Positions 8,345-53,618 of a DNA stretch of 54,143 nucleotides are shown piece after piece (the first letter of the stretch is position 1; each line of letters starts with the position of its first letter). Under the pieces are notes generated by a model that saw only the letters and a program-made list of their open reading frames with translations, had not been told where the DNA came from and did no database searches. The stretch is from Mytilus trossulus (lineage: Eukaryota): positions 50,143,235 through 50,197,377 of the forward strand of contig NC_086382.1 in the NCBI RefSeq assembly GCF_036588685.1, written 5' to 3'. The position numbers and the translations under genes are program-made.

Positions 8345-10118
8345 TTAATTATGCTTTTCTATCTCTTGAATAGATTACTTTAACTGAGTTTGGCAACTAA
8401 CCTTTGAGGAAATCTTGATCCTCAATGATCGTCAACTTCGTACTTTATTTGGCCTTTTACACCTTTTATGATTCGAGCGTTACTGTTGTAGATGAAATGA
8501 GCGTCTGCGCAAATAAAAAGGAAAAGTTCATCATTTGTCACTACCAAACATTGATATATCAACATAAATGCTATCGTAATGTAGTATACAAACTTATGTT
8601 ATCGCATTTTGCATTTGAAATTATCTTCGCACAAGACTGCATATTAAAAATTTTGTTCATATAAACTACTATGAGTTCGGTAGAATATCAAAAATTTTGT
8701 TTAACTGATAAAAATTATTCCTCCATTTCTATCTAAACTAAAGATGGATTTTGAAAACGACCCATAAGTTATTTATTTGAAACAAAATATGGAAAGACGA
8801 TTTCAATACATATTATGTTTCTCCTTTTATATTCCCTAATAATTAAAAGAAAAATCATCGAAAGAAAAATCAATATGATTTTAGAACTTGATGCTACAGA
8901 AATTTAACATTAAAGATCAGAATTTTTGTTCTTCTAGTCCTACATAATTTAGGCTATGTTATCATGCGAAAAATTAAATGTGAAAAGAAAATATTAACAT
9001 TACATTGAAAGCAGAGCTGGAAAGATCTCTAAAACAAGATACCGCTGTATAGTCCCTGTGAAACATTGTTACATATTTACAGATTGTTTTCAAGTTCTTT
9101 CCTCTATTATTAATAAAAGCCATTATAGTTTCATTTCATCAGGGATTCAGATTCAAAGTAATTAACTTTTCAAAACACTAGTTTATATTGATAGGAAATT
9201 AATAAAGGTATCCAAAGAGCAAAAAATATGTCGGTCACCGTGCTTGTTTTCGAGATATGAGCCATTGAAATTTTGGCGGGAAAATATTCACTCTTGAATT
9301 TTCATTGCTTTATTATTGACAAATGGAAGTTCTCAAAAACTTTTAAAAAGTAATTAAAATTTTACTTTTATAGATAGCTTATCATTATACATGTAAAAGA
9401 TTTTCATAAAGAAAAATGGGGGTCACCGGGCAAATTTTTTCAACACATTTAAATTGATCAAACCAGCGGAATCCGAAAATCTGACGAAAAATCCAAAACA
9501 TGACAAGCCACCTTCCTTAAGACAATATATCTGTGAATAAGAACGTTCATTATTCAAAAGCATTAGACAGGTAAAGAATACCTTCTTATAAGTTGTTTAT
9601 GGAATTCATTAACACGAGAAGTAGACGCAAATAAGAATTTGGCGACACCAATATATTTTGAGAAAATTAATAAGATAAAGCCATCTTCTGTCATAAAGAT
9701 ATTATGAAATACATGTAAGCAACATACACAAAAAATGTATGAACATTTTCCATTTTGTCTTTACAAAAATCACAGAAATATCAATGAATATACCCATCTG
9801 AGTTTGAAAAGAAGTAAATAAAATGAAAAATGTAAATTTTCTTTATTTTCAATATCATTTTGCAGTAAATGAATCTGAATATAAAATACACAAAAAAGTT
9901 CTGAAGTATATTTTAAATGATGCAATCTTTGTATAATTATGCTTTTCTATCTCTTGAATAGATTACTTTAACTGAGTTTGGCAACAAACCTTTGAGGAAA
10001 TCTTGATCCTCAATGATCTTCAACTTCGTACTTTATTTGGCCTTTTACACCTTTTATAATTCGAGCGTTACTGTTGTAGATGAAACGAGCGTCTGCGCAA
10101 ATAAAAAATGTCAATCTA
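8345..10118 (+). repeat. Segmental duplication copy 2, with a body at 8527-9945 flanked by 175-bp direct repeats (8345-8520 and 9942-10118)
   Basis: The flanks share attatgcttttctatctcttgaatagattactttaactgagtttggcaac...gcgtctgcgcaaataaaaa. The body is collinear with 4765-6640 but lacks the SINE insert. It lies inside intron 1 of the mucin-like gene. Confidence 0.8.
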
Positions 10119-11300: not shown

Positions 11301-11825
11301 TGATCCTTTTTTGTACGACAGTCGCAAAAAAATCTTTATATTCACAACAGTATGTCAACAAAAGCAGTCATTATTGTGTTAAAATCTTAATGTTAAAAGA
11401 GAAATGAAATGACATATATAGACAAAGCACATAAGCAAAAATGGAAGACAAGAATACAAAAATTGGTCATGGCACAATAAAAGAATGGCAGGATATATGA
11501 ATACCGAGGCACGCCAAAAAAATATCACGGAAATGGACTAAACAGTAAATGCTAAAAATATTTATATACAAGTAAAAGAGCACGTTGCAAAACATTGAAA
11601 TTGAACGTTTTACATTCGAGTACGATCCAGATTTGGATGAATATCTTAAGTAACTTAAGATAGTATCAGCCTATCAAAATAATTTATAAACCCTCATCTC
11701 TTACAGGAGGTTTACTCAGATAGAATACGTGCCTCTTGACTGCAGGCCGTTTATAAAAGGTTTTACTAATAGCATCAACAAGTCATAAAAGTGTCATACA
11801 ATGAAGTATATTTTCTCTTTTTTAG

Positions 11826-14800: not shown

Positions 14801-17800
14801 ACAGCTGCAAAAACCATCGAGGCTACCTTAATATCTAATACTGCTGGTATAACCACAAGGACCATTGGTACTATCACCGATAAGCATTTGACAAACACAG
14901 AAGGTACAACTACTGTTTCTGAGACTCGCGGATTAACATCTGACGAAACAACTTATACAGCACCAACCACCCTGCTACAGACCACCGCTGCTCCAGCTTC
15001 GGTCACTTCGATTGTTAATGATAAAATGACGGAAAAGATGAAAACCATAGCTAACTCAGAAACGCCAACAAAAACGTCTACATCCATATCTGACACTCAA
15101 ACGATCGGCTTTACAACAGATGATATAACGATGACAAACACAACAACTATTGAAGCTACTGACACAGCTGCAAAAAACATCCAACTAACCTCGATGTCTA
15201 GTTCTGTTGGCATAACCACTAAACTTGTTGGTAATATCCCCGATAAACATTTAACAAACACAGAAGGTACAACTACTGTTTCTCAGCCTCAAGAACCACC
15301 ATCTGACAAAACCACACACACAGCAGCAACAACTCTGCTAAAGACCACCGCTGATCAAACTGCAGACCCTTCGATTACTAATGATAAACCGACGGAAACG
15401 ACGTACTCCATAGATTACTCACAAACGCCAACAAAAACGTCGACGTCCATATTTGACTCTCAAACGATCGGCATTACAACAGTTGATACTATGATAACAG
15501 ACAAAACAATTATTGAAGCTACTGACACAGGCTCAAACATAATCCAACTCACGTCGATGTATAATACTGCTGACATAACTTCTAGTATCATTGGTACAAC
15601 CACCGATCAACATTTGACCAACACAGAAGGTACAACTATTGTTTCTGAGACTCATGAACCACCATCTGACGAAACAACACACACAGCAGCCACAATTTTG
15701 CTAGAAACATCTGCTGGTCAATCTTCGGTCACTCCCATTACTAATTATAAACCGACGGAAACGATGGAAGCCACAGTTAGCTATGAAACGCCAATAATAA
15801 GGTTTACATCCATGTTTGACACTCAGACAATCGGTTTTACAACAGATGATAATACGGTAACAGACACAACAACTAGTGAAGCTACTGTAACAGCTGCAAA
15901 AACCATCGAGGCTACCTTAATATCTAATACTGCTGGTATAACCACAAGGACCATTGGTACTATCACCGATAAGCATTTGACAAACACAGAAGGTACAACT
16001 ACTGTTTCTGAGACTCGCGGATTAACATCTGACGAAACAACTTATACAGCACCAACCACACTGCTACAGACCACCGCTGATCCAGCTTCGGTCACTTCGA
16101 TTGTTAATGATAAAATGACGGAAAAGATGAAAACCATAGCTAACTCAGAAACGCCAGCAAAAACGTCTACATCCATATCTGACACTCAATCGATCGGCTT
16201 TACAACAGATGATATAACGATAACAAACACAACAACTATTGAAGCTACTGACACAGCTGCAAAAAACATCCAACTAACCTCGATGTCTAATACTGTTGGC
16301 ATAACTACTAAACGTGTTGGTAATATCCCCGATAAACATTTAACAAACACAGAAGGTACAACTACTGTTTTTCAGTCTCACGGACCAACATCTGACGAAA
16401 CCACACACACAGCAGCAACAACCCTGATAAAGACCAACGCTAATCAAAGCGCAGACCCTTCGATTACTAATGATAAACAAACGGAAACGACGGACTCCAT
16501 AAATAGATCAGAAACGCCAACAAAAAAGTCTACACCCATATCTAACACTCAGACGGTCGGCTTTATAACAGATGATCCTACGATGACAGACACAGCTAGT
16601 GAAGCTACTGTAACAGCTGCAAAAACCAATGAACTTACCTCGATATCTAATACTGCTAGCATAACAACTAGGACCATTGGCGCTACCACCGATAAACATT
16701 TGACAAGCACGAAAGGTACAGCTATTGTTTCTGAGACTTATAAACCAACATCTGACGAAACAACTTACACGGCAGCAACAACCCTGCTAAAGACAACCGC
16801 TGATTCAGCTTTGGTCACTTCGATTACGAATGATAAATTGACGGAAACGACGGACTCTATAGATAGATCAGAAACGTCAACAAAAAAGTCTACACCCATA
16901 TCTGACTTTCAGACGATCGTCTTTACAACAGATGATCCTACGATGTCAGACAAAACTAGTGAAGCTACTGTAACAGCTGCAAAAACCATCGAACTTACCT
17001 CGATATCTAATACTGCTGGCATAACAACTAGGACCATTGGCGCTACCACCGATAAACATTTGACAAGCACGAAAGGTACAACTATTGTTTCTGAGACTTA
17101 TAAACCAACATCTGACGAAACAACTTACACGGCAGCAACAACCCTGCTAAAGACAACCGCTGATTCAGCTTTGATCACTTCGATTACGAATGATAAATTG
17201 ACGGAAACGACGGACCCCATAGATAGATCAGAAACGCCAACAAAAAAGTCTACACCCATATCTAACACTCAGACGATTGGCTTTACAACAGATGATCCTA
17301 CGATGACAGACACAGCTAGTGAAGCTACTGTAACAGCTGCAAAAACCAATGAACTTACCTCGATATCTAATACTGCTATAATAACAACTAGGACCATTGG
17401 CGCTACCACCGATAAACATTTGACAAGCACGAAAGGTACAGCTATTGTTTCTGAGACTTATAAACCAACATCTGACGAAACAACTTACACGGCAGCAACA
17501 ACCCTGCTAAAGACAACCGCTGATTCAGCTTTGGTCACTTCGATTACGAATGATAAATTGACGGAAACGATTGACTCCATAGAAACGTCAACAAAAAAGT
17601 CTACACCCATATCTGACATTCAGACGATCGTCTTTACAACAGATGATCCTACGATGTCAGACACAACTAGTGAAGCTACTGTAACAGCTGCAAAAACCAT
17701 CGAACTTACCTCGATGTCTTATACTGTTGACATTACCACTAATACTGTTGATACTACAGAAGGAGAATCATTGATAAACACAGAAGGTACAACTTTTGTC

Positions 17801-19015
17801 GTTGAGACTCATGAACTAAAATCTGAGAAAACATCATTCACAACAGAAACATCATTTGTAGATACAACCGTTGATCACGCTGCGGACTCTTTGATCATGA
17901 ATAATAAACTTACGTCAACATCCGCAAGTAGTGTCGAACTTTCTTATAGAACTACTAATAAGAATATTGACAAATCCGCTGACATTTCATCTACAAACAC
18001 CGAAGGAACAACTATTTTCTCTGAGACTCATGAACCACCATTTGACAAAACAGCTAACACATCCCTTACAACCTTGGTAGAGACAACTGCTGGTCAAGCT
18101 TTAGTCTCTCCGATCACAATTAATAAACAGATGGAAACGACAGACACAAAAGCTAGCGCGGCAACGCCAACAAAAACGCTGGCATCCATTTCTGAAACAA
18201 ATGGATTTACAACAGATTATACGACTGTGACAGACGCAACCATTAATGAAGCTACTGTCATATCCGCAAAAAAACTTACCTCTGTGTATAATACTCCTGG
18301 AACTACCACTAATAATATCGATGACAAAACCGTTAATATTCAATTGACTAACAACGAAGGTACAACTGTCTCAAAGACTCATAGAGCGACAGCTGACGAA
18401 TCAACTCACAAAGCAACGACAACCTTGCTAGAGACCACAGCTGTTCAAACTTCGAACGCTCCGTTCAATCATGATAAACCGACGGAACTGACGGACACTG
18501 TAGCTGGCTCAGAAACCCTTATGATAACATCGGCATCAATTTCTGACTTTCATACGATTGGCACTAGAACATATGATACGACTGTGACAAAACAACCAAC
18601 GGATGAAGTTCCTTTCACAGCCTCAGAAAACATTAAACTAACCTCTACTTCTGCTCATATTGGCACTATCATTAACACTGTTGGTACTACCGCAGAAAAT
18701 TCGCTGACAAGCACCGAAGGAACAACAACTATATATGAGACTCATGGACCAACAATTGACAAAACAACTATTACAGCGGCTTATCAACCTTCGATCATTC
18801 CGATCACTGATAATGGACAAACGGAAACGACAGACACAATAGATAGCTCAGCAACGCCATCGAAAACAACAGCATCCATTTCTGAAACTCAGACGGTTGG
18901 TCTAACAACAGATGATGCTACTGTAACAGACGCAACAACTAGTGAAGCTACTATCACCGTCGCAAAAACCATCGAACTTACCTCCAAATTAAATTATACT
19001 AGCACTTCCACTTAA
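11826..19015 (+). CDS. Mucin-like gene exon 3: about 2395 aa of Thr/Ser-rich (PTS) tandem-repeat domain, with stop TAA at 19013-19015
   Basis: Acceptor ttctcttttttAG at 11824-11825. G(10454)+AA(11826-27) gives GAA=E, which is exactly in frame with the long ORF (..ESTTTASAV). The 120-aa repeat consensus is ..TPTKTSTSISDTQTIGFTTDD.T.TDT.SEATVTAAKTIELTS.SNTAGITTRTIG.TTDKHLTNTEGTTTVSETH.P.SDETTHTAATTLL.TTADQ.S...ITNDK.TETT. Confidence 0.75.
16480..17650 (+). repeat. Higher-order repeat inside the mucin CDS: 720-bp periodicity (two alternating 360-bp subunit types), at least 3 near-identical copies
   Basis: Identical reverse-strand ORF artefacts 16508..16699 and 17228..17419 lie exactly 720 bp apart. 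Subunit types alternate: NTQT(V/I)GF..MTDTAS..KTNELTS..GTAIV versus D(F/I)QTIVF..MSD(K/T)TS..KTIELTS..GTTIV. Confidence 0.85.
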
Positions 19016-20589: not shown

Positions 20590-21500
20590 ATCTCTTTATC
20601 TCAGACAACTGACACTAAAAAGAATGAATATTACCGAAAGAACGGTTGTTTGAAGGCCACATTAAGTATTTTTCAATATAGCAAGTACTTTGACAGTGTT
20701 GTTAGGGACTAAATGAAACCGTCCCAATGATTAATGGATTAACATCTGAAGAATAAAGGCAACAGTAGTATACCGCTGTTCAAAACTCATAAATCCATTG
20801 ACAAAAAACAAAATCGGGGTAACAAACTAAAACTGTGGGAAACGCATTAAATATAAGAGAGAACAACGACACAACACTAAAATGTAACACACACAGACAC
20901 TGACCAAGCATCAGACAAAATCCTAAAAAGAGTGAATATTACCGAAAGAATAGTTGTTTGAAGGCCACATTAAGTATTTTTCAATATAACAAGTACTATG
21001 AGCGTGTTGTTAGAGACTAAACGAAACCGTCCCAATGATTAATGGTTTAACATCTGAAGAATAAAGGCAACAGTAGTATACCGCTGTTCAAAACGCATAA
21101 ATCCATAGACAAAAAAAATCGGGGTAACAAAATAAAACTGAGGAAAACGCATTAAATATAAGAGAGAACAACGACACAACATTAAAATGTAACACACATA
21201 GAAACGGACTAAGCATTAGACAAAAACCTATGAGAATAACAAATATAATATGAAAACCAAATACATGAATCTTGGATAGATAAGTACCTTGACACGTCTT
21301 ATATTAATGTGAATTCACAGTCAAAAATAAGAGAAAACAAACGACACAACGGAAACACAACGTTAAAATGTAACACACACAGAAACGAACTATAATATAA
21401 CAATAGCCATATTCCTGACTTGGTACAGGACATTTTTAAAGGAAAAACGGGTGGGTTGAGCCTGGTTTTGTGGCATGCCAAACCTCCCTCTTATATGGCC
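20590..21500 (-). mobile_element. Family-1 SINE-like element on the - strand with an internal tandem duplication of about 310 bp (2.3 copies, 20610-21240)
   Basis: 21300-21490 is the reverse complement of 5680-5800. The segment ataaaggcaacagtagtataccgctgttcaaaactcataaatccattgacaaaaaacaaaatcggggtaacaaa is the reverse complement of 5990-6068. The unit gaatattaccgaaagaa.ggttgtttgaaggccacattaagtatttttcaatata repeats at 20620 and 20930. Confidence 0.6.
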
Positions 21501-26380: not shown

Positions 26381-27221
26381 TGGTGTCTAATTTTTGATAC
26401 CTTTGAAGCATGACATTTATTACCTGCTGCCATCCCCACCTCAAAGACCAACACACCCTCCCTTGACACCTCCACTATTCCTTACTTATTTAGTCCTTGC
26501 TATGCTCTATCAGAAAATATAAACAAACCTTTCGTATGATCCAACATCTTTTTAAACCTTTTCACATACTCTTATTTTTTTCAATTAAAATAACATGATG
26601 TGGTATGATTGGCAATGAGTTTAATATCCTTTTCCGATAAATCCAATGACCAATTAAGTGAGGTGGATTTAAGAAGGCCTGTTGACCATTGCTTGACCTT
26701 TAACAATTATTATCCTCCTGTGTCCATCCAAAACCAGGATACTTTTATGAGGCTATTTATTTGGTATCTCTATCATGAATCTATTATAATTAGTGTTTAT
26801 AATTTTAGTCATGCTCTATTTTTCAGATAAAAAGATGTCAATATTTAGTGATTGTCAGATAGTCCTGGACTTGACTACCAGTGTCAACTTTAAGAAAAAG
26901 ACAGAAATCAGGAAAATTATCACTAATAATGGAGGAGTTATATCCTATATTGTCACTAAAAAGGTAAACATCATAGAGCCTGCCATTTTACAAATTCCAG
27001 TTTTTAGAATTTTATAATATAACAAGGTGTGGTGGATTATTGCCAATGAGACAACTGAAATTCAACAAAGGTCAAAACTTCAATAATCAAGATTTTAAAA
27101 AGCAATTTTATCATTTAACAATTGTTCTTGCAAAGTTCCGGACAGTTGAATTTAAGTGTTACCAAGAGAATTGAAAAGGAAGTTTAATATGACAAACCAT
27201 ACTACTTATATAGTAACCATT

Positions 27222-27940
27222 TTTCGTAAATCCTAGTAATCTTTTACAAAAATCTTCTCCTCTGAAACTAGGTTGCCAAATTTAACCAAACTTGGCCACA
27301 ATCATCATTGGGGTATCTTGTTTAAAATTTGTGTCCGGTGACTTGATCAACTATTCAAGATGGCCGCCATGGCTAAAAATAGAACATAGGGGTAAAATGC
27401 AGTTTTTGGCTTATAACTGAAAAACCAAAACATCAAGAGCAAATCTGAAATGGGTAAAAAAAATTATCAGGTCAAGATCTATCTGCCCTGAAAATTTCAG
27501 ATGAATCGAAACAAACCGTTGTTGGGTTGCTGCCCCTGAATTGGTAATTTTAAAGAAATTTTGCTGTTTTTGGTTATTATCTTGAATAAAATTATAGATA
27601 GAGATAAACAGTAAACAGCACTTAAGATTTACAAATAAGTCAACATGACCGATATGGTCAGTTGACCCCTTTAGAGTTACTGCCCTTTAAAGTCAATTTT
27701 CAACATTTTTCATAAATTTTTGTAGATTTTTCGAAAATATTTTCCACTGTAATTACTGGGCCAAGTTCATTATATATAGAGCTAATTGTAGCAACAAGAA
27801 TTTTCAGTAAAGTAAGATCTACAAACACATCACCATCATCAAAACACAATTTTGTTATGAATTTATCTGTGTCCATTGTTTAATATGCACATAGACCAAA
27901 GTGAGTGACACAGGCTCTTGAGAGCCTCTAGTTTTAAGGT
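27222..27940 (+). mobile_element. Truncated single-unit copy of the composite element seen at 40430-43460: one 480-bp satellite unit plus tail, lacking the terminal repeats
   Basis: Collinear with 42060-43300: taatcttttacaaaaatcttctcctctgaaact...ccaagatggccgcc..ggctaaaaatagaacataggggtaaaatgcagtttttggcttataac...cacaggctcttgagagcctctagtttt. Confidence 0.7.
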
Positions 27941-29850: not shown

Positions 29851-30651
29851 TAATGATTTTTATCTAATTTCCGCAGGTAAATGTGCCTTTGACCAAATTA
29901 GACACTAACGACTAAAACAACATATTTTGCAATAAAAACATGTATTGTTCTTCCACTAATCCCCCATGTAGGAATAGCCAGAATAGTAAAATACAAAATG
30001 TAGGAATAGCCAAATATTCATACTGAGGAATGTATCTGATATTAGAATGCAAGTTCTAATTATTTTGATACTACCCCAGTTATTATTCCCATTAATAAAA
30101 AACTAACAAGAATTTTTGAATTCACTGTAAATATGACTATTTATATCTAATTCTTCCTCAATTTATCCCTTTCTGCACCCATTGTATAAAAAAATTTAAT
30201 CAGCATGTGGTTTGTTTGATCTAAGTACTTCATTGGTTAAAATCCGATTATGACGTCGAATTTTCTTGCTTTCCTCTAAAATTCCTATTTTGACGGCATG
30301 AAAAAAGGCGACCATGCCTCAGGCGGCCATCATCATGACGTCACATAGAAAGAACACTTTATTTTGCAGATCATTCGAAAAGAAGGAATAAGTGTGCCCG
30401 CATATAATGTTAGAAAATCATTAGAGAAACAGATTCCACCACCAAATCTCGTGTAATACAATATTTATCCACTCATGACAGTTAAATTTAAAATATTTAA
30501 AACACTCTGGCAAGCCTCACGTTTTAAATTTGAAAATTTAACTTTCTCTAGTTGATTAATATTATATTACACTCGATGCAGCGGTAGAATCTATATGTTT
30601 TCCCAAATCCAACTAATAATTTCACTTGACTATTTACAAATTTATTTACAG

Positions 30652-31169
30652 AGTACACATGTTGTTTGTAATGACCCAGAAAAGGGAGATATCAGTAACA
30701 AATGTAAAATGGCCACAAAGTATGGATTACCAGTAGTGTCACTTGATTATATCCATGATTGTGTAGACCAGGGGAGACTACTCAGTTGTCTAGTTTATTA
30801 TATGTTTCTGGTTTATTTTCAGAGTACACATGTTGTATGTAATGATCCAGAAAAAGCAGATATCAGTTCAAATGTAAAATGGCCACAAAGTATGGAATAC
30901 CAGTAGTGCCGCTTGATTATATCCATGATTGTGTAGACCAGGGGAGATTACTCTGTTGTCTAGTTTGTTATATGTTTCTGGTTTATTTACAGTGTACACA
31001 TGTTGTTTGTAATGATCCAGAAAAGGCAGATATCAGTTACATGTACAAATGTAAAATGGCCACAAAGTATGGATTACCAGTAGTGTCACTTGATTATATC
31101 CATGATTGTGTAGACCAGGGGAGATTACTCTGTTGTCTAGTTTGTTATATGTTTCTTGTTTATTTACAG
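30652..31169 (+). repeat. Three extra tandem copies (units of about 171, 170 and 177 bp) of the 3-prime end of an intron plus the 5-prime 130 nt of the PARP4 BRCT exon. Each copy carries an acceptor but no donor.
   Basis: The units begin at 30652, 30823 and 30993. Each starts with ..tttatttacAG (a/t)GTACACATGTTGT.TGTAATGA.CCAGAAAAGG.AGATATCAG...ATGGCCACAAAGTATGGA.TACCAGT.GTG.CACTTGATTATATCCATGA.TGTGTAGACCAGGGGAGA.TACTC and then switches back to pyrimidine-rich intron-like sequence. Confidence 0.85.
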
Positions 31170-31368
31170 AGTACACATGTTGTATGTAATGACCCAGAAA
31201 AGGCTGATATCAGTTACAAATGTAAAATGGCCACAAAGTATGGATTACCAGTGGTGTCACTTGATTATATCCATGACTGTGTAGACCAGGGGAGATTACT
31301 CAATACAGATAATTACATCCTGGTTGGAAAAACAAAGTCACAAGAATTCAGCTCAGGAAAGATAACAG
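31170..31368 (+). CDS. PARP4: PARP4-like exon: BRCT domain C-terminal half (fourth and only complete copy). Ends phase 1 at donor ACAG|GTAAAAG.
   Basis: Translation is STHVVCNDPEKADISYKCKMATKYGLPVVSLDYIHDCVDQGRLLNTDNYILVGKTKSQEFSSGKIT. I aligned this to my recollection of human PARP4 as ..THIILDNADVLSQYQLNSIQKNHVHIANPDFIWKSIREKRLLDVKNYDP, which is not a database check. Acceptor AG at 31168-31169, donor GT at 31369-31370. Confidence 0.65.
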
Positions 31369-32478
31369 GTAAAAGAAAATGAAAAAAATAAACAAACTAA
31401 TTTTATAAACGGAAAAGGGGTATCAATCTCAATTTTAGCCTACTGTTTGTTTGAAGTTTTGAAACTTTTTTAAAATTAGAAATATTTTTTTCAATATTCT
31501 TAAGATTTCCAAAGTACAAATCTCTGAATACAATATGTATCACATTGGTTTTAAAAGGTAATGCTTGCGCAACTGATTCAATTTCTGATTTCTTCCCTTG
31601 TATGACTCTCTTTAGACCCTTCTGAAATTGTCAAAATCTATTTAAAAATTCAACCAATTTAGCATTGACTGGTGCCTGTAGGTTCAGATATCAAGATGCA
31701 AGAGTAAATTTGTAGATAACAAAATGTTATGACCTTAAACATGTTAAAAGGTATGTAATGCCTATTTATAATTTTAAATGGCTTGCAGACTTCTAATATT
31801 GTTCAGCAGGTCTGAACGTACTTACGGAAAATTAATATTTTATATTAATATATTATGCTTAATAGACAACTTTTGTGTTCGATGCATTTCCATCAAAAAC
31901 TCTTGTTTTTGTGAACGTCATTTGTGCGTCACTTTCATTCCTATGTTGAGTGAGTGGTTGGAAGACCACAATTCTATATTGTACGAATTATTTGGTAAAT
32001 TGAATTCTCAAAATTGACCATCAGCATTGCTGTCATTAGGGAATTGTCATTAAGTACTTACAGAACAGCCATTACTTCTAGTTTATCCGGCACAATAACG
32101 ATCACTAAGATGCTTGATGAATGTAAATAGTGCAGGGATACAGGCGACCCCCTCTATCTGGTAAATGACGTCATAAAGGCGTGTATAATTGACGAGTTTT
32201 TTCAGGTGACAGATGAACTCAAAAGTGGTCTATTATGTTATGTCCATTTATTGTAGAAGCGAAGTGTATTATTACACAACAAGGGTATCATCTGGGTCCT
32301 CATAATGGACACATTCTCCATTTATATCAATATTTATTTGTCTTAACAATACAACATTTACTTGGCTTACAGATGAGGTAAAAAGTAGCAGACATGTGAT
32401 GAATTGTTAAATATTAGAATATTTAGACATGATGAATATAAACAATGATAAAGATGAATGATTTGTTTTTATTTGCAG

Positions 32479-34199: not shown

Positions 34200-35140
34200 C
34201 TCATCTTCGTCCGAAGACATTTGGTTTTCGCACTATAACTTTAGTATAAATTTATAGAATTCTATGAAATTTAAACACAAGGTTTATGACCATATAAGGA
34301 AGGTTGGGATTGATTTGGGGAGTTTTGGTCCAAACAGTTTGGGAATTAGGGGCAAAAAAGGGCCCAAATAAGCATTTTTCTTGGTTTTCACACAATAACT
34401 TTGTAATATAAGATTTATGACTACAAAAGAAAGGTTGGGAATGATTTTGTGAGTTTTGGTCCAAACAGTTTAGGAATTAGGGACCAAAAAAAGTCCCAAA
34501 GAAGCATTTTTCTTGTTTTTTGCACAATAACTTTACTATAAGTACAGAAATCTATGAAATTTTAACACCAGGTTTATGATCACAAAAGGAAGGTTGGGGT
34601 TGATTTTGGGAGTTTTTGTCCCAACAGTTTAAATTAGGGTCTAAAAGGGTCCAAAATTAAACTTTGTTTAATTCATCAAAAAATTAATTATTGGGGTTCT
34701 TTGATATGCCAAATCTAACCGTTTATTCAGATTCTTAATTTTTGGTCCGGTTTTCAAATTGGTCTACATTAAGGTCCAAAGGGTCCAAAATTAAATTTAG
34801 TTTGATTTTAACAATTATTGAATTCTTGGGGTTCTTTGATATACTGAATCTAAACATGTACTTAGATTTTTGATAATGGGCCCAGTTTTCAAGTTGGTCT
34901 AAATCAGGGTCCAAATTTAAACTTGTTTGATTTCAACAAAAATTGAATATATTGCGTTCTTCAATATGCTGAATTTAACCATGTATTTAGATTTTTTATA
35001 TTTGGGCCTGGTTATCAAATTGGTCCACATTGAGGTCTAAAGGGTATAAAATTGAACATTATTTGTTTTCATCAAAAAAATAATTCTTGGGGTTCTATGA
35101 TATTCTAAATCTAACCATGTATTTAGATTTTGGACCATAA
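34200..35140. repeat. Two adjacent intronic tandem arrays: about 3 units of 150-160 bp (34200-34640), then about 4 units of 125 bp (34640-35140)
   Basis: Array A repeats ..aggttgggattgattttgggagttttggtccaaacagtttgggaattagggg.caaaaaagggcccaaa.aagcatttttcttggtttt. Array B repeats ggtccaaa.ttaaa.ttgtttgattt..caaaaa.t.aat.cttggggttctttgatat.ctgaatctaaccatgtatttagatttt. Confidence 0.75.
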
Positions 35141-35555
35141 TAGGTAAATGTCCAATTTAAAATTTTAAGTTTTTAATTTTAAGTTTTAAGATCACATTCA
35201 TTCTGTGTCAGAAACCTATTTTGTGTCAACTATTTAATCACAATCCAAATTCAGAGCTGTGTCAAGCTCAATTGTTGTGTCCATACTTGCCCAAACTGTT
35301 CAGGGTTCGACCTCTTTGCTTGTAAAAATCAGCGCCCTGCGGAGCATTTGGTTGTTCATGAAATCACCATTGTTCATATGTCTCTGATTGATACAAACAT
35401 TGATTATATATTTTGTTAACCTGTATGTATTATTGAGATCTAATATCTGAACATTTACAGTTAATTCTAAAATGAAAAAAATAACACTAGTCTGAAGTGT
35501 GGAAAAAACTCCATATAAGGACCAGTCTGTAATACGATTTGATATTATTTTTCAG

Positions 35556-35708
35556 AGAGGTGTTACAGAATGTCGGTATGTAGCCACATCAGATGATGCC
35601 CTACATGTGTATACCTATTTACATACTGAACAAACTCGACCTCCATACAACATGGATATTATATACCAACCCTTGTCAAGAAAAATAGGTTCTACAAACT
35701 TTCAAAAG
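35556..35708 (+). CDS. PARP4: PARP4-like exon, phase 0 in and out
   Basis: Acceptor ttatttttcAG at 35554-35555. Translation RGVTECRYVATSDDALHVYTYLHTEQTRPPYNMDIIYQPLSRKIGSTNFQK. Donor AAAAG|GTAGGT at 35709. Similarity to PARP4 here is weak, so assignment rests on splice-site quality and phase continuity. Confidence 0.45.
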
Positions 35709-36309
35709 GTAGGTCGTATAAAAATTTGATAAAATATATAGAAATAAGAAGATGTGGTATGATAGTCCAGTCAAACTAAGATTTAACCTCAAACTAATTG
35801 CAACAAAAAATGTTTTAGTTCTAATCTATAGTAGTATGCCCCATAAAATCTAACTTCAGGAAAACTCAAAATCAGCATTTTTAATTTCCAATGGAAATTA
35901 ACATTGGAAGGGGAGATAACTCTTGCAAAAATGAGTCTTTTTTTTGGTCAGTTTTTGGTTGTTTTTCTTGAAATTTATGTAAAGTATGATACTTTGATGG
36001 GGTTATAAGTTTGTATTTGACTATATTATATAATCTCCTGCTCATGAAATGTACAAAATTGAAGTGTTATGGGTAGTTTTATTTTTTGTCGAGTCTTAGA
36101 CTTTAGTCGAAAAAGCGGGACTAAGCGATCCTACATTTCATCGTCGGCTTAGGCGGCGTCCACAAATATTCACTTTGTGGTTAAAGTTTTTGAAATTTTA
36201 ATAACTTTCTTAAACTACACTGGATTTCTACCAAACTTAGACAGAAGCTTGTTTATGATTATAAGATGGTATCCAGTAGTAAATTTTGTAAAAATAAAAT
36301 TCCATTTTT

Positions 36310-37140
36310 TTCGTATTTTACTTAAGGTCAAGGAACAGTAAATGGGCTATGTCGCAGATATTGCTAAAAAATTGCATACAACCTTGGCTCGTTGAACTAC
36401 AACTGAAAGTCGAAAAAATTATACATTTATCTCTTTTATTTTCTGAAAAATTGCAGATTGATTTCTCTTAATATGGGTGAACATTTGTATAGGAAGCACA
36501 TAAAATCGACGAAAAACCTTCTAAAATTTGTCTTTAAATCGCCAAATCTATAATTCTACTCCATAGATTTTTCTTAAAAAACTATATATTGTTGACACAT
36601 AAATTTCTGTTTTAATGATATAAAATAATCATAGGGTCACCGACTTCGTTTTTTGTCTAATAATCATTTTGCTACCTTATTGGTAGTGAAAAACGTCAAA
36701 AATCAACGTTTTACGGCCTGCAACGCGATAACGTTACGATTATTTCGACGTTTTGTTGGATTTTTTCACAAAGAACGCATCTTTGAATGATGTATACCGT
36801 AAAAACGAAGTCGGTGACCCTATCTTTATTTTGCATCATTATAACGGAAATTTATGTATCAACAACATATAGTTTTTTAAGAAAAATCTATGGAGTAGAA
36901 TTAGAGATTTGGCGATTTTAAGACAAATTTTAGAAGAGTTTTCGCCGATTTTATGTGCTTTCTATACAAATGTTCACCCATTTTGTAAGAATTCAATCAG
37001 TAATATTTCAAATGATAATTGAGATAAATGCATTTTTATTTCGATTTTCAGTTGAAGTTCATCGAGCCAGAGCTGTATGCCAAATTTTACTGAAATCTAT
37101 GACATAGCCCATTTACTGTAACTTGACCTTAAATGGACTT
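36310..37140. repeat. Near-perfect long palindrome: two arms of about 330 bp in inverted orientation around a 160-bp spacer
   Basis: 36310-36650 (gtcaaggaacagtaaatgggctatgtcgcagatattgc...aatcatagggtcaccgacttcgtttttt) is the reverse complement of 36810-37140 (aaaacgaagtcggtgaccctat...gacatagcccatttactgtaacttgacc). The spacer carries its own small inverted repeats (acgtcaaaaatcaacgttttacgg / ccgtaaaaacgaagtc). Confidence 0.85.
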
Positions 37141-37900
37141 AGTTTTTTCTGCGGGGAAACATAACATCCACTCTGTGGTTAAAGTTTTTAGAATTTTAAT
37201 AACTTTTTTAAACTATTCTGGGTTTGTACCAAACTTGGACAGAAGCTTGTTTATGATCATAAGATAGTATCGAGAAGTAAATTTTGTAAAAATGAAATTC
37301 CATTTTTTCCATATTTTACTTATAAATGGACTTAGTTTTTTCTTCGGGGAAACATAACATTCACTCTGTGGTTAAAGTTTTTAGAATTTTAACAACTTTT
37401 TTAAACTATCCTGGGTTTGTACCAAACTTGGACAGAAGCTTTTTTATGATCATAAGATAGTATTCAGAAGTAAATTTTGTTTAAAAAAAAAAAAAAAAAT
37501 CTCGTATTTTACCTTTAAATGGACTTAGTTTTTTCTGCGGGGAAACATAACATTCACTCTGTGGTTAAAGTTTTTAGAATTTTAATAACTTTTTTAAACT
37601 ATTCTGGGTTTGTACCAAACTTGGATAGAAGCTTATTTTTGAGCATGAGGTAGTATCTAGTAAATTTTGTAAAAAGATAACTCCATTTTTTCTGTTTGTT
37701 AATTTTTAAATGGACTTAGATTTTCTTCCAGTGAACATTACATACAGTCCGCAGTTGAATTTTCGAAACATTTATTAGATTCATTAACTATCCTAGATTT
37801 TTACCAAACTTGGACAGAAGCTTCTTACAATCATCAGATAGTATCAAGAGGAATATTTTTATTGATTTTTTTCCTCAGTTTTGTTGAGCCTGTGATTTAC
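37130..37900 (+). repeat. 190-bp tandem array, about 4 units. One further unit sits upstream of the palindrome at 36150-36330.
   Basis: The unit is aaatggacttagttttttctgcggggaaacataacattcactctgtggttaaagtttttagaattttaataacttttttaaactattctgggtttgtaccaaacttggacagaagcttgtttatgatcataagatagtat..agaagtaaattttgtaaaaa. The motif ggttaaagttttt is shared with the MITE at 51018-51300. Confidence 0.8.
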
Positions 37901-38988
37901 AGTAAAAGTAGGCGAGACACTGGTTCCGCGGAACCCTTACAAATTTTTTTCATGCATTTTTCATTAAAGAAATTTCAAATTTAAAGCTTTGTCAGCATTT
38001 TGAAAAAATAATGTGAAAATTTGGTATTGTTTATATCTGTATATGATATTTTTTTAACAACATAATTATCTAAAGAAAGTTTAAACCACAAAAAGAGGAA
38101 TACATGCTCAATTTTTTTTTAATTAAATTTGAGATTCTTAACCTTGACATGTTGAAAAATTCAATAAATGGTCAACTAATGAATTACGAAATCTAGATTA
38201 TAGCTTGATAAATTATATGAAAACACCTTTAGAGTTGTTTGTTATACTCTAAAGACTGCTAAAAAATCTAGAATCAATACATTCTGATGAATAGAAGCGG
38301 TAAAGTTATAATTTTGTATCAATTTTTATTGACATTTCTGCCTTTTTTGCAAGTTATCTCCCTTTTCAATGCAAATTTCCATAGGAAAATTTAAATGGTG
38401 ATTTTTTTAGTCTTCCTCAAGTTAGATTTTATGGGACTTTTTTCTGTGTATATTTGGGGTTTTAATGCTTAAGATTAAAACTTAAAAATCTTCTGTTGCA
38501 ATTACTTTCAGGTTAGGGTCAAATTTATACTAGATTGATTGCTAATGACATTGAAGTTAACAACTATAGCCTATAGGTCACTGTTAAGGTTTTCTTGAAT
38601 GAGCAAAACCCATACTGTATAGTCAAGGCCTTGAAATTACCATTGTAAAGCAATTGTAACAAGAAACCTATGGCCTGATTTATGTACAAAACAATGCACA
38701 AAAAACTGATATGCAGCAGTAAACAACAACCACTGATTACTTGGGACCAGCACTTACAGAATGTGGTGGGGTTAAACTATAGTTTGCTGGTGTCAATACA
38801 AATTTATATAATCATTAGAAGTTACAACCTATGCTTAAACTTAATTGATTTAGCATGTCAATTACCCCTGCTACTATGAGCCTGAATATTGAGAACCAGA
38901 CTAAATATTTTCTGCAATTGGGTGAATTTATTGCTTAGTTTGCCTATTCTTAAAAGCAAATTTAAGTGAGGTAAAAAATGTTTTTCAG

Positions 38989-40429: not shown

Positions 40430-43400
40430 CAATTAGTGACCTTCATTATACCCCACACAACGGGTTGCGGAGGATATAATGTTTTTGACCCGTCCATCCT
40501 GAAGTCCGTCTGTCAGTCCGTCAGTCAGTCCTGTTTCTTGTCATCGCAATTCCTCTCAAACCACACAACAGAATTTCACGAAACCTTTTCAGATCATAAG
40601 GACATACTATGTAGTTGTGCATATCAACCGAAAATTGCGATTCAATTTTTTTTCTAGGAGTTACACTCTTTTGAACTTATTTACTTTAATGTACTGCTGC
40701 AACAGTTTGTCATCGCAACTCCTCTCAAACCACACAACAGAATTTCACGAAACCTTTTCAGATCATAAGGACATACTATGTAGTTGTGCATATGGACGGG
40801 AAATTGCGATTTAATTTTTTCTAGGAGTTATGCCCCTTTGAACTTATTTACTTTAATGTACTACTGCAACAGTTTGTCATCACAACTCCTCTCAAACCAC
40901 ACAACAGAATTTCACGAAACCTTTTCAGATAATAAGGACATACTATGCAGTTGTGCATATCAACGGGAAATTGCGATTCAATTTTTAGCTCACTTGGCCC
41001 TTCGTTCGGGCCAAGTGAGCTTTTCCCATCACTTTGCGTCTGGCGTCCGTCGTCGTCCGTCGTCTGTCGTCCGTCGTCTGTCGTCCGTCGTCGTTGTTAA
41101 CTTTTACAAAAATCTTCTACTCTGAAACTACTGGGCCAAATCAAACCAAACTTGGCCACAATCATCATTGGGGTATCTAGTTTAAAAAATGTGTGGCGTG
41201 ACCCGGTCAACCAACCAAGATGGCCGCCACGGCTAAAAATAGAACATAGGGGTAAAATGCAGTTTTTGGCTTATAACTCAAAAACCAAAGCATTTAGAGC
41301 AAATCTGACATGGGGTAAAAATGTTTATCAGGTCAAGATCTATCTGCCCTGGAATTTTCAGATCAATCGGCCAATCGGTTGTTGGGTTGCTGCCCCTGAA
41401 TTGGTAATTTTGAAGAAATTTTGCTGTTTTTGGTTATTATCTTGAATATGATTATAGTTAGAGATAAACTGTAAACAGCAATAATGTTCAGCAAAGTAAG
41501 ATCTACAAATAAGTCAACATGGCCAAAATGGTCAGTTGACCCGTTTAGGAGTTATTGCCCTTTATAGTCAATTTTTAACCATTTTTAGTTAATTAAAGTA
41601 ATCTTTTACAAAAATCTTCTCCTCTGAAACTGCTTGGCCAAATTAATCCAAACTTGGCCACAATCATCTTTGGGGTATCTAGTTTAAAAATGTGTGGCGT
41701 GACCTGGTCAACCAACCAAGATGGCCGCCACGGCTAAAAATAGAACAAAGGGGTAAAATGCAGTTTTTGGCTTATAACTCAAAAACCAAAGCATTTTGAG
41801 GAAATCTGACATGAGATAAAAATGTTTATCAGGTCAAGATCTATCTGCCTGAAAATTTTCAGATGAATCGGTCAATCGGTTGTTGGGTTGCTGCCCCTGA
41901 ATTGGTAATTTTGAGGAAATTTTGCTGTTTTTGGTTATTATCTTGAATATTATTATAGATAGAGATAAACTGTAAACAGCAATAATGTTCAGCAAAGTAA
42001 GATCTACAAATAAGTCAACATGACCAAAATGGTCAGTTGACCCGTTTAGGAGTTATTGCCCTTTATAGTCAATTTTTAACCATTTTTCGTAAATTAAAGT
42101 AATCTTTTACAAAAATCTTCTCCTCTGAAACTACTTGGCCAAATTAATCCAAACTTGGCCACAATCATCTTTGGGGTATCTAGTTTAAAAAATGTGTGGC
42201 GTGACCTGGTCAACCAACCAAGATGGCCGCCACCGCTAAAAATAGAACATAGGGGTAAAATGCAGTTTTTGGCTTATAACTCAAAAACCAAAGCATTTTG
42301 AGGAAATCTGACATGGGATAAAAATGTTTATCAGGTCAAGAACTATCTGCCCTGAAATTTTCAGATGAATCGGTCAATCGGTCAATCGGTTGTTGCCCCT
42401 GAATTGGTAATTTTGAGGAAATTTTGCTGTTTTTGGTTATTATCTTGAATATTATTATAGATAGAGATAAATTGTAAACAGCAATAATGTTCAGCAAAGT
42501 AAGATCTACAAATAAGTCAACATGATCAAAATGGTCAGTTGACCCCTTTAGGAGTTATTGCCCTTTATAGTCAATCTTTAACCATTTTTCATAAATCTAA
42601 GTAATCTTTTACAAAATCTCCACTGAAACTACTAGGCCACAATCATCTTTGGGGTATCTAGTTTGAAAAATGTGTCCGATGACCTGGCCATTCAACCAAG
42701 ATGGCCGCCACGGCTAAAAATAGAACATAGGGGTAAAATGCAGTTTTTTGCTTATAACTATGAAACCAAAGCATCTAGAGCAAATCTGACAAGAAGTTAA
42801 ATTGTTAATCAAGTCAATATCTATCTGCCCTGAATTTTTCAGATGAATTGGACAACTGGTTGTTGGGTTGCTGCCCTCCAATTGATAATTTTTAAAGAAA
42901 TTTTGCCGTTTTTGGTTATCTTGAATACTATTATAGATAGCGATAAACTGTAAACAGCAATAATGTTCAGCAAAGTAAGATCTACAAATAAGTCAACATG
43001 ACCTAAATGGTCAATTGACCCCTTAAGGAGTTATTGCCCTTTATAGTCAATTTTTAACAATTTTCATTAATTTGGTAAATTTATGTAAATTTTTACCAAA
43101 TATAGTTCTCTGTTACTAATGGGCAAAGTTCATGATAGATATAATTGTAAGAAGCAAAATCGTTCAGTAAAGTAAGAACTTCAAACACATCACCATCACC
43201 AAAATACAATTTTTTCATGAATCCATTTGTGTCCTTTGTTTAATATGCACATAGACCAAGGTGAGCGACACAGGCTCTTTAGAGCCTCTAGTTTTTCTAG
43301 GAGTTACGCCCCTTTGAACTTATTTACTTTAATGTACTACTGCAACATTTTGTCATCTTAACTCCTCTCAAACCACACAACAGAATTTCACGAATCCTTT

Positions 43401-45933: not shown

Positions 45934-46437
45934 TTATTTCAGACTATTGTTATATTCCATAGTAGCAGACTTGGCATTCTTTAAAAGAACTGCACTTGGT
46001 TTCAGTTCATAGCAATGCAAATGTGTATTCATTTTACAAGAAAGAAGAGCACACAGTGTATCCTTATTAAGATCAGCCCTAAACTCTGTAGCTATTTTCT
46101 TTACTAAAGAAAATGCCCTCTCACTGTCTGCATTGCTGTTTGGCAAAACCAGTAATGTTTTAGCAAGTTTTGACAAAACAAAAAATCTTGGCTTGTTAAG
46201 AAAAATGTCATGCAACTTGGACATTTCTCCCCAAAATGTACCAATGTCAGTTTCAGGGGAAGTGCAAAGTGGAAGTTCATCTAATGGGGTCAACTGATAG
46301 TCACTGAACTCATCTTGTAGCTTGTTGAAAATATCGTTACGTAGCTCAGGTAAACAAGTCCTACATTTTGACTTTTGATTACATTGAAAAAGACCGATAA
46401 AACCGAAGGTCGTATTACTTCTAAATACCGGAAACAA
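45934..46437 (-). mobile_element. hAT-superfamily transposase remnant (C-terminal hATC dimerisation region), internally deleted. The adjacent subterminal ACGGGTG repeats at 46440-46560 are discussed under findings.
   Basis: The 167-aa ORF ..LPELRNDIFNKLQDEFSDYQL..FWGEMSK..LAKTLLVLPNSNADSERAFSLVKKIATEFRADLNKDTLCALLSCKMN carries the diagnostic hATC signature (..NADSERAFS..R..L....L..LL). The N-terminal DDE part is absent. Confidence 0.65.
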
Positions 46438-53019: not shown

Positions 53020-53345
53020 CTAATCCTAAACCTGAGTATTCCAATATCCGGCATTAACTGACACTGACATCATGGTCCAAATAAATTCCTAGCCTTGCAG
53101 AAAAAAAATGAGTATTCCAACATCCTGCATTAACTGACACTGACATCATGGTCCCAATAAATTCCTATCCTTGCAGAAAAAAACCGTGTATTCCAACATC
53201 CTGCATTAACTGACACTGACATCATGGTCCCGATAAATTCCTATCCTTGCAGAAAAAAACTGAGTATTCCAACATCCTGCATTAACTGACACTGACATCA
53301 TGGTCCCAATAAATTCCTATCCTTGCAGAAAAAAAACTGAGTATT
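53020..53345. repeat. Intronic minisatellite with a 75-bp unit, about 4.5 copies
   Basis: (a)aaaaaa.tgagtattccaacatcctgcattaactgacactgacatcatggtcccaataaattcctatccttgcag repeats head to tail. Each unit ends in a pyrimidine tract followed by CAG. Confidence 0.85.
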
Positions 53346-53618
53346 CTGACACCCTGCTCAATCCAACATTTTTTTTCTGGTCCCCCAGTGTGTCGGATAA
53401 CACAGGTTACACCGTATATTGAAAAAGTTTTCATATTCAGTGAGTAGCATTTATGAATACTTACAATCTGTTGTTTACAGTAAATCTTGATGAGACTCCT
53501 CTGTATAACATTAATATAAGTATCTTTACAGATTAAAATGATATAAGCATATGCATTACTCATCCTTTTCTACACAACTTGACTTGTTTCCTTCCAATTC
53601 TGTCTTTTTTGTTTTTAG

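Follow-up and report, generated by a model that had tools for sequence, protein, structure and literature searches.

A TTAA-bounded long inverted repeat nested in a HINE-like element within an intron of a PARP4-like gene of Mytilus trossulus

The DNA considered in this study, which I will call the window, is a stretch of 54,143 nt from Mytilus trossulus (RefSeq assembly GCF_036588685.1, contig NC_086382.1, positions 50,143,235 to 50,197,377 of the forward strand). On its + strand there are a BRCT exon (30.9-31.4 kb), fragments of PARP catalytic exons (44.6-48.0 kb), VIT (49.55 kb) and VWA (52.1 kb). Since BRCT lies upstream and PARP, VIT and VWA downstream on the + strand, the region between is flanked by coding exons, and the locus is intronic in a PARP4-like gene (BRCT-PARP-VIT-VWA), as an earlier reading made from the sequence alone had also concluded. 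The intron contains an array of 193-bp units, interrupted by a large inverted repeat. The features discussed here are shown in Table 1, with positions counted from the first letter of the window.

Table 1. Features in and around the 193-bp array of the PARP4-like intron.
Feature	Position	Strand	Remarks
Outer inverted repeat, left arm	35787-35931	+	preceded by TTAA (35783-35786); terminus CCTCAAAC
HINE-like (Helentron-type) non-autonomous host element	36083-37948	+	head, 193-bp central repeats, tail
HINE head	36083-36145	+	T-string TTTTT, short palindromic segments, (CGN)n microsatellite-like stretch; six 5' ends aligned
Array unit 0, upstream of palindrome	36146-36325	+	74-80% identical to units 1-3; ends in left TTAA
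Left TTAA, copy of target-site duplication	36322-36325		ACTT(T/A)TAAATGG at paralogous junctions, where there is one TTAA or TATAA
Left arm (terminal inverted repeat)	36326-36660	+	terminus 5'-GGTCAAGGAACAG; gap-free alignment with right arm
19-nt core GGGTCACCGACTTCGTTTT, inner end of left arm	36634-36652	+	exact match to MITE family, >118 copies
Centre/loop	36661-36793		non-palindromic, small local hairpins
Right arm (terminal inverted repeat)	36794-37128	-	gap-free alignment with left arm
19-nt core GGGTCACCGACTTCGTTTT, inner end of right arm	36802-36820	-	same string as left-arm core
Right TTAA, copy of target-site duplication	37129-37132		first four bases of unit 1
Array units 1-4	37129-37860	+	193-nt period; unit 4 diverged
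HINE tail	37861-37948	+	3' palindrome GGTTCCGCGGAACC (37922-37935), then CTTACAAA, T-string; five 3' ends aligned
Outer inverted repeat, right arm	38344-38512	-	~83% identical to left arm, one ~30-nt indel; followed by TTAG (38513-38516)

The part of the array downstream of the inverted repeat is reported by TRF (37129-37846) as 3.8 copies of a 193-nt period with 81% matches. The units are mutually 74-90% identical, with the last about 62% identical to the others, and TTAA sites occur in the array at 18 per ~1 kb. The sequence-only reading had noted direct units of about 190 bp on both sides of the palindrome, one upstream and four downstream, and this description holds. It was also correct in placing the palindrome within a tandem array, but incomplete, in that the array is not a free-standing satellite and forms instead the repeated middle part of a HINE-like element, which is dispersed and has fixed ends.

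Six or seven independent copies of this host element, with 79-96% identity to the one in the window, are present in ENA contigs (L123-L129). Their similarity starts at window position 36083 (36079 in L128) and stops at 37948/37949, and the flanks beyond are unrelated. In the 5' ends of six copies and the 3' ends of five, the boundaries are TTTTT...TTTTT, with no target-site duplication in the unrelated flanks. The head contains a (CGN)n stretch in every copy and palindromic segments with the consensus GTCGAGCCTTCGAC / TCGACTTTAGTCGA. At the other end, the palindrome GG(G)TTCCGCGGAACC(C) is followed by CTTACAAA and then by a T-string in all five cases, and the tails of L126 and L127 match that in the window at 94-96% identity. 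The number of units varies, from about 5 in the window to ~2-3 in L124, ~2 in L129 and at least 2 in L123. As found, the host element measures 1,866 bp, or about 1,060 bp once the nested insert is subtracted.

The anatomy of the host element is as in Helentron-type HINEs, and its ends agree in at least seven copies. Described HINEs occupy T-rich or TT sites, with T-strings at both boundaries and no target-site duplication; they have a stem-loop, formed by a short palindrome, at 8-35 bp from the 3' terminus, a pair of subterminal inverted repeats of 12-15 bp at distances of 2-4 nt (5' end) and 38-60 nt (3' end), and tandem central repeats of fixed orientation and copy-variable number, preceded by a microsatellite-like stretch (PMC4067079, PMC7492417). 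The host element is like those HINEs that carry repeats resembling satellite DNA (DINE-1 of Drosophila, the HINEs of mites and Culex, and Cg_HINE of the oyster) in its T-strings without target-site duplication, in a short perfect palindrome situated 8-13 nt before the 3' end, in a palindromic or inverted-repeat segment near the 5' end, in its microsatellite-like stretch, and in tandem repeats that keep one orientation and differ in number between copies. No convincing inverted pair of 12-15-bp subterminal repeats was found in it, and no autonomous Helentron was identified. The palindromic GTCGAGCCTTCGAC is separated from the 5' end by 5 nt; the 3' sequence that matches it best, GTTGAGCCTGTGAT, ~57 nt inside the 3' terminus, is in direct orientation (the inverted match is 9/12). 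The 5'-terminal ~24 nt are likewise repeated ~57 nt from the 3' end directly and not inverted. The element provides an example of how short satellite-like arrays can be the cargo of Helentron-type elements beyond the species in which this was first described.

The inverted repeat within the array is a single large one, with arms placed at 36322-36668 and 36786-37132 by a repeat search of the window and seen in a blastn self-comparison as a reverse-strand match spanning 36322-37132. TTAA is itself palindromic, so the flanking TTAAs also lengthen the inverted repeat; without them each arm is 335 nt, and the arms make up 670 of the 803 bp of the structure (811 bp with both TTAAs). The arms align with no indels and 282 matches in 335 positions (84.2%), the longest perfect run being 37 nt. 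Transitions account for 22 of the 53 mismatches and transversions for 31. The outer 170 nt of the arms are less well matched than the inner 165 nt (79% as compared to 89% identity; Fisher p = 0.017). The 133 nt between the arms contain no TTAA. The sequence-only reading had described an 830-bp near-perfect palindrome, with arms more than 95% identical about a 160-bp spacer containing small hairpins. The large inverted repeat and the local hairpins are indeed there, but the whole and the spacer are both shorter than was stated, and the arms are far from the identity claimed.

That 53 substitutions should have accumulated with no indel is odd for neutral decay. An assembly artefact in the form of a foldback chimera was also considered and is dismissed, because the arms differ at those 53 positions.

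The potential of the structure to form a hairpin, as had been anticipated, is very strong. Folded as single-stranded DNA it reaches -270.7 kcal/mol, as compared to -71.8 +/- 4.3 for shuffled sequences (z = -47), and folded as RNA -427.9 kcal/mol, as compared to -152 (also z = -47). The accompanying argument for fragility is weakened, since the arms are 84% identical and not nearly perfect. Extrusion of a cruciform at the level of DNA is unlikely in view of the 16% mismatch between the arms, and the locus is a poor candidate for cruciform-driven instability. Any other consequence of the hairpin is putative: if the intron is transcribed, the imperfect duplex of ~335 bp could serve as a substrate for Dicer or ADAR.

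Both arms begin directly after a TTAA, and the local sequence reads TATTTTAC-TTAA-(803 bp)-TTAA-ATGGACTTAG. Once the insert and a single TTAA are removed in silico, the sequence reads ...TATTTTACTTAAATGGACTTAG, which restores the junction of two 193-bp units. The restored site agrees with intact unit junctions of the same array (ACTTATAAATGG, ACCTTTAAATGG) and with the junctions in five further copies of the host (L123, L124, L127 and L129 among them), where the insert is absent and the sequence runs through the junction uninterrupted; the empty sites compared are paralogous, not orthologous, and the call of a TTAA duplication requires a 2-nt difference in a T-run. The phase of the array is kept across the insert, in that the start-to-start distance of 998 nt less 807 leaves 191, near to 193. 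An empty allele would be expected to read ...TATTTTAC(TT)TTAAATGGACTTAG.... The termini of the insert are TTAA-GGTCAAGG...CCTTGACC-TTAA, i.e., 5'-GG...CC-3'.

The insert is non-coding. Its longest stop-free segment is 57 aa, it has no match in Pfam, no tRNA was found, and Rfam gave no match at E <= 1 across 35500-38700. The stop-free translations of arm and centre, concatenated and compared to 5.8 billion predicted proteins, gave zero matches even at E <= 10, and exact-sequence look-ups of an arm ORF, a unit ORF and the 2404-aa ORF returned no record. Neither the flanking units nor the rest of the 54-kb window contains anything similar to the arms.

I consider it probable that the palindrome represents a single non-autonomous DNA transposon of the cut-and-paste type, a foldback-like MITE, inserted at TTAA between two 193-bp units, with a transposase presumably of the Kolobok type. 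In common with MITEs, it has terminal inverted repeats, a target site that can be restored and no coding capacity. An element with long terminal inverted repeats (335 nt per side, a 133-nt loop, 803 bp in all) would have integrated at the TTAA joining two units, with duplication of the target and with a Kolobok-type transposase perhaps supplied in trans; the arms would then have diverged to their present identity of 84%. Because of that divergence the insertion is judged to be old and the element probably now immobile. The arrangement is one of nested transposons, of an ordinary type, and not a fragile palindrome made in place: the TTAA-type element with long terminal inverted repeats lies within the satellite-like array of the HINE, which lies within the intron. 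For annotation, what could be taken for a fragile palindrome in a DNA-repair-related gene reads as a decayed stack of transposons, and the stack illustrates how TTAA-specific elements can exploit the TTAA sites that such arrays offer.

The same insertion may instead derive from a transposon of the piggyBac family or from another that uses TTAA. The typical termini of piggyBac elements are 5'-CC(C/Y)...(R/G)GG-3', and the insert, while having the TTAA, departs from this terminal consensus, its 5'-GG...CC-3' being the opposite of 5'-CC...GG-3'. Kolobok elements, on the other hand, are defined by a TTAA target and a purine-purine (RR) terminal sequence (PMC6004289), and the insert shows both the TTAA duplication and RR termini. 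Judged from these bases, the insert appears to fit Kolobok better than piggyBac, a choice of superfamily that hangs on two terminal bases because no autonomous partner or transposase has been identified. The sole transposase fragment in the window is that of a hAT element. In support of piggyBac, it is the classic superfamily duplicating TTAA (PMC5199201), and the outer inverted repeat has piggyBac-like ends, CCT...AGG beside TTAA/TTAG, and elements of that kind may therefore be present in the genome; the HINE is possibly contained in an older TTAA-flanked inverted-repeat element. Weighing the termini against these points, I regard an origin outside Kolobok as unlikely.

Among described elements, the Kolobok T2-MITEs of Xenopus (e.g., Xmix) are like the insert in their TTAA duplication, in the purine-purine that follows the TTAA and in being non-coding. 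They end in AGGRR (PMC6004289), as compared to GG in the insert, from which the AGGRR motif is absent, and typical T2-MITEs have short terminal inverted repeats, as compared to 335 nt. T2-MITEs have also been tied to tandem arrays (Xmix, Xstir), but here the array belongs to the host element and not to the TTAA element. The arms of Drosophila FB elements are composed of tandem sub-repeats, and target duplications are 9 bp for FB and 7 bp for Galileo. The arms of the insert, in contrast, have no internal sub-repeats (no 6-8-mer occurs at least three times within an arm) and the duplication is TTAA, 4 bp, but the insert is like FB and Galileo (P superfamily, PMC4168063) in its two long inverted arms, its short loop and the long hairpin that it could form.

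The structure might also have arisen from two independent insertions, head to head, of one dispersed repeat. A centre that is not palindromic and arms only 84% identical accord with this. However, the arms are exactly equal in length with zero indels, a single pair of TTAAs surrounds the entire structure, there is no duplication, of TTAA or otherwise, at the inner boundaries of the arms or in the centre, and a solo arm is absent from the window and the related contigs. Two opposite insertions with unrelated boundaries, which the sequence-only reading had named as the scenario that would contradict it, are not what is seen, and I find independent insertion improbable.

That reading had left the choice between a foldback transposon and a template switch. 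The former is favored by the symmetrical ends, the TTAA duplication and the empty site. The latter would have the palindrome formed in place as a local inverted duplication, by stalling of a replication fork and switching of strands, with no mobility at any time. In its favor, the region is rich in repeats and prone to slippage, and the palindrome was not met with a second time in the 54-kb window, by the protein-level search, by the exact look-ups or among ~18 kb of contigs belonging to the same species or a sister species, for which reason its mobility as a family is unproven. A template switch copies adjacent sequence, however, and the arms are unlike the flanking units or anything else within 54 kb. 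It is also at odds with a clean addition of 803 bp at which TTAA (4 bp) is duplicated and the empty site can be restored, and with a 19-mer in the arms common to a family of TTAA-flanked MITEs (considered below), and I give it very little credence. Highly doubtful too is a functional locus for an intronic hairpin RNA (a putative endo-siRNA or miRNA-like precursor or ADAR-edited dsRNA), which would be compatible with a transposon origin and could draw on the stability of the RNA fold, the perfect register of the arms and the better conservation of their inner halves, but which has no Rfam match and for which the heterogeneity between the parts of the arms is weak (p = 0.017).

To return to the inserted transposon, the string GGGTCACCGACTTCGTTTT that each arm carries at its inner end is identical to one in a 658-bp MITE family found in >118 copies in metagenome contigs (JGI contigs Ga0126336/38/42/43 and others) and bounded by TTAA-GGACGTTCGCGC...GCGCGAACGTCC-TTAA, a type of end that it shares with the insert. 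The family is like the insert in its TTAA flanks, its GG termini and the presence of GGGTCACCGACTTCGTTTT reading inward from the left end. It differs in its host, in its short terminal inverted repeats (~13-16 nt) and in the distance of the core from the end, 105 nt as compared to 308 nt in the insert. The metagenome loci were chosen by the exact 19-mer, and conservation of the 19-mer among them is for that reason unusable as evidence.

Alignments by nhmmer hinted at homology between arm and MITE extending ~100 nt upstream of the 19-mer, but with the 19-mer excluded the similarity is not significant (p ~0.15 vs shuffles). Homology between the 193-bp unit and the MITE was rejected as well, the local alignment score being no better than those of shuffles. 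No autonomous (long) version appeared among 120 metagenome loci, the lengths of which cluster at 600-700 bp. One metagenome copy of the MITE gave no Rfam match at E <= 1, there were 0 matches to the 19-mer in viral contigs, and literature searches with the 19-mer motif and with strings from the HINE head, tail and unit yielded chance primer matches or nothing.

It is conceivable, and I offer it tentatively, that GGGTCACCGACTTCGTTTT, with the shorter GGGTCACCG of other TTAA-ended elements in the window, represents a cis-element deeply conserved in a single TTAA/GG-ended transposon lineage common to this aquatic invertebrate and the unrelated host of the MITEs, whether by old vertical descent or by horizontal transfer, with the palindrome an undescribed derivative of foldback type. 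The 19-nt core may be a subterminal binding site for a THAP-type transposase, and, being common to both, it provides a handle for seeking the autonomous partner of a poorly characterised lineage. Within the window, GGGTCACCG occurs 4 times, as compared to 0.05 expected, and one of these occurrences lies 24 nt inside a second MITE with the ends TTAA-AGGGGCAC...-TTAA, at 3127-3817.

The large palindrome of the window is an 803-bp inverted repeat (36326-37128) with TTAA on either side (36322-36325 and 37129-37132). An inverted-repeat search gave one large pair, 36322-36668 against 36786-37132 (347 nt, 84% complementary, 117 nt between), and in a blastn self-comparison the interval 36322-37132 matched its own reverse complement. 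When the arms were re-aligned with the flanking TTAAs left out, 282 of 335 positions were identical (84.2%, gap-free) and the longest unbroken match was 37 nt. The inverted repeat that a sequence-only reading had called near-perfect, with arms more than 95% identical, is real, but the degree of identity was overstated. The mismatches comprise 53 substitutions (22 transitions and 31 transversions) and zero indels, and the inner half of the arms is better conserved than the outer half (89% versus 79%, Fisher p = 0.017). That many differences between the arms excludes an assembly artefact. Such a number of substitutions without an indel, with transversions outnumbering transitions, is atypical of neutral decay.

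One long hairpin is predicted for the 819-nt interval in single-stranded form (DNA, -270.7 kcal/mol versus -71.8 +/- 4.3 for dinucleotide shuffles, z = -47; RNA fold of the palindrome interval, -427.9 versus -152). With about one mismatch per six bases, extrusion of a cruciform would be unlikely, and the fragility argument made for the palindrome is weakened.

Features of the locus and of its gene context
Feature	Position	Strand	Description
Left arm	36326-36660		335 nt exactly
Right arm	36794-37128		335 nt exactly
Centre	36661-36793		133 nt; non-palindromic; small local stems on folding
Host element, 5' end			TTTTT string
Host element, head			short palindromic segments GTCGAGCCTTCGAC, TCGACTTTAGTCGA; (CGN)n microsatellite-like stretch
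Host element, middle			193-bp units, single orientation, number variable (window ~5, other copies ~2-3)
Host element, tail			perfect palindrome GG(G)TTCCGCGGAACC(C)
Host element, 3' end			CTTACAAA, then TTTTT string
BRCT exon	30.9-31.4 kb	+	
PARP catalytic fragments	44.6-48.0 kb	+	hand-joined, Pfam PARP E = 9e-19
VIT	49.55 kb	+	
VWA	52.1 kb	+	
Outer inverted repeat	35787-35931 / 38344-38512		~145-170 nt, ~83% identical, one ~30-nt indel

The palindrome lies within a dispersed repeat, the host element (36083-37948). The tandem array reported around it is indeed there: TRF reports 3.8 copies of a 193-nt repeat at 37129-37846 (81% matches), and one more unit (unit 0) precedes the palindrome at ~36146-36325. 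Units 1-3 are mutually 84-90% identical and 74-80% identical to unit 0, with unit 4 at ~62%. The boundaries of the insert read ...CGTATTTTAC-TTAA-GGTCAAGGAACAG...[803 bp]...CTGTAACTTGACC-TTAA-ATGGACTTAG..., and the start-to-start distance from unit 0 to unit 1 is 998 nt, which shrinks to 191 nt, the length of one unit, once the insert and a single TTAA are taken out. The empty site reconstructed in this way, ...TATTTTACTTAAATGGACTTAG..., matches three intact junctions of the array itself (...ACTTATAAATGG..., ...ACCTTTAAATGG... and ...ATTTTTAAATGG...) as well as junctions in copies of the host element on other ENA contigs (ACTTTTAAATGG in L123 and L127; ACTTATAAATGG in L124, L127 and L129), and the insert is absent from all of those compared copies. 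If the TTAAs are counted as part of the element, with no duplication, six conserved junction bases are missing, whereas if a duplication is assumed the sole remaining mismatch to the junctions is a 2-nt difference in a T-run. Judged by these junctions, the palindrome inserted as a discrete unit and duplicated a TTAA. It has no coding capacity (longest stop-free stretch 57 aa, no Pfam or Rfam match). With the insert removed, the host element is 1,060 bp long and contains 18 TTAA sites.

The palindrome is quite probably a non-autonomous, long-TIR, TTAA-duplicating DNA transposon: such an element, mobilised in trans, would have integrated at one TTAA within HINE central repeats, duplicating it, and would have decayed after insertion. 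The termini of the insert read 5'-GG...CC-3', the reverse of the CC...GG that typically ends piggyBac elements. Duplicated TTAA targets are a hallmark of piggyBac (PMC5199201) and also of Kolobok, which is described as combining them with purine-purine (RR) termini (PMC6004289), as found here. On the strength of the duplication and the GG...CC ends I call the insert Kolobok-like, with moderate confidence; an origin from piggyBac, to which the duplication would equally point, is unlikely given the reversed ends. Compared with other TTAA elements the 335-nt arms are long, which is mildly unusual. That two elements inserted head to head is quite improbable, given a single pair of target duplications and arms of identical length; the inner ends of the arms and the centre show neither TTAA nor any other duplication, which argues for one element, not two abutting. 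Local template switching, an origin suggested earlier, is very unlikely, because the insertion is clean and the arms are not native to the locus, blastn self-comparison finding no similarity to the flanking units or elsewhere in the window. To a functional role as hairpin RNA, compatible with the other readings and drawing its support from the energy of the fold and the lack of indels, I give very little weight.

A 19-mer, GGGTCACCGACTTCGTTTT, is found at the inner end of both arms (36634-36652, +; 36802-36820, -). It was scanned by exact match over metagenome contigs, at least 120 of which matched, and 118 of the 120 among the matches listed represent one repeat family (L003-L122; most copies 600-700 bp) with a consensus of 658 bp, TTAA-GGACGTTCGCGC...GCGCGAACGTCC-TTAA. 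Among the matches listed this is the only high-copy family that has the 19-mer, and its consensus boundaries show TTAA and GG ends, the end type of the insert. Similarity between insert and family beyond the 19-mer is not significant, and the invariance of the 19-mer across the fetched loci is a consequence of their having been selected by it. An exact 19-nt string common to the insert and a MITE family of an unrelated metagenome host is mildly unusual. The family, from contigs Ga0126336/38/42/43, Ga0099803-16 and others, has a high copy number and at least three subfamilies, with GGGGGTCACCGACTTCGTTTT near position 100 and a second GGGGTCACCGAATGTCC near ~490 in identical orientation. In the window, GGGTCACCG occurs four times versus 0.05 expected, an excess that lends independent support to the link between insert and family. 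An extra copy, GGGTCACCGA, lies 24 nt inside the left end of a second TTAA-flanked MITE (3127-3817, 691 bp), whose ends, TTAA-AGGGGCAC...GTGTCCCT-TTAA, also given as TTAA-AGGGGCACTATCT...AGCTAGTGTCCCT-TTAA, are T2/Kolobok-type termini.

The host element was sought elsewhere by means of a 44-aa ORF in each array unit, surely spurious as a gene. Its relatives (six from an exhaustive HMMER search and three more from a word-indexed search) have translations that in part match the window on the left (36095-36165) or right (37880-37950) of the array. Contigs L123-L129 were fetched and compared with the window. In every copy similarity starts at 36083 (36079 in one) and ends at 37948/37949, with 79-96% identity; the flanks beyond are unrelated, and the compared copies have no target duplication at their ends. 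Other window repeats also occur on these contigs at 85-93% identity, so their source is the species of the window or a sister species; one of the contigs bears the label 'aquatic metagenome'. HINEs are known by T-strings, TT insertion and a palindrome 8-35 bp from the 3' terminus, with a microsatellite and central tandem repeats as optional parts (PMC4067079; oyster Cg_HINEs, PMC7492417). The host element has the same T-strings, 3' palindrome, microsatellite-like stretch and central tandem repeats, but a clean 12-15-bp inverted subTIR pair was not found, and I name it HINE-like on both counts. Its 5'-terminal ~24 nt are repeated ~57 nt from the 3' end in direct orientation. Each layer belongs to a known kind: the insert is a MITE or foldback-like element of TTAA type, the host a HINE with a satellite-like array. 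Transposon nesting is commonplace. In L126:1-504, a unit of the 34.2-35.1 kb array (reverse strand) adjoins the last HINE unit and tail (96% to 37704-37949), which suggests recombinant or truncated HINE copies.

The domains flanking the locus stand in the order found in PARP4, so the locus is intronic, in agreement with its earlier assignment to a PARP4 intron. The outer inverted repeat brackets the whole HINE, has CCT...AGG ends and is flanked by TTAA and TTAG (extent 35783-35931, 38344-38516); no other copies of it were found. Possibly it is an element of TTAA type that is older still, a piggyBac-like MITE into which the HINE inserted.

Elsewhere in the PARP4-like gene, a 171-bp (exactly 57-codon) tandem repeat (30641-31301, ~3.9 copies, 92-95% identity) holds the 3' half of the BRCT exon. 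ORFs 30595-30906 and 30879-31382 (+) run through its copies, repeating ...KMATKYGLPVVSLDYIHDCVDQGRLL... Either a recent amplification of exon(+intron) in frame or an array of pseudo-exons could account for this repeat. Between the PARP catalytic exons lies what is left of a hAT transposase, a 167-aa ORF (45934-46437, -) that matches the hAT-family C-terminal dimerisation domain in Pfam (E = 3e-9). An uninterrupted 2404-aa Thr/Ser-rich ORF (11801-19015, +; 40% GC, strong GC/AT skew), with repeats of ~360 nt (~120 aa) at 65-79% identity and no Pfam match, resembles a gene of the mucin type, and upstream of it is an ORF with a PAN domain (7243-7596). A tandem array of ~500-bp period (41101-43295, 87-91% between copies) has a solo copy 14 kb upstream (27214-27935) and a 91% copy at L124:1-212, an unrelated contig of a related species, which makes it one more dispersed repeat that forms arrays. 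Other arrays in the window are those at 48-991 (79 bp), 34221-35134 (~130 bp), 40538-40986 (169 bp) and 53028-53357 (76 bp). A segmental duplication (4755-6624 / 8520-9934, 93-95% identity) is interrupted in its first copy, at 5627-6064, by a ~440-bp repeat found also at 20752-21499. At 9379-9395 the ends of its alignment share 17 nt, possibly a long target duplication, and both copies have AAAGAAAAA(T/C)GGGGGTCAC(C/T)G right after the junction.
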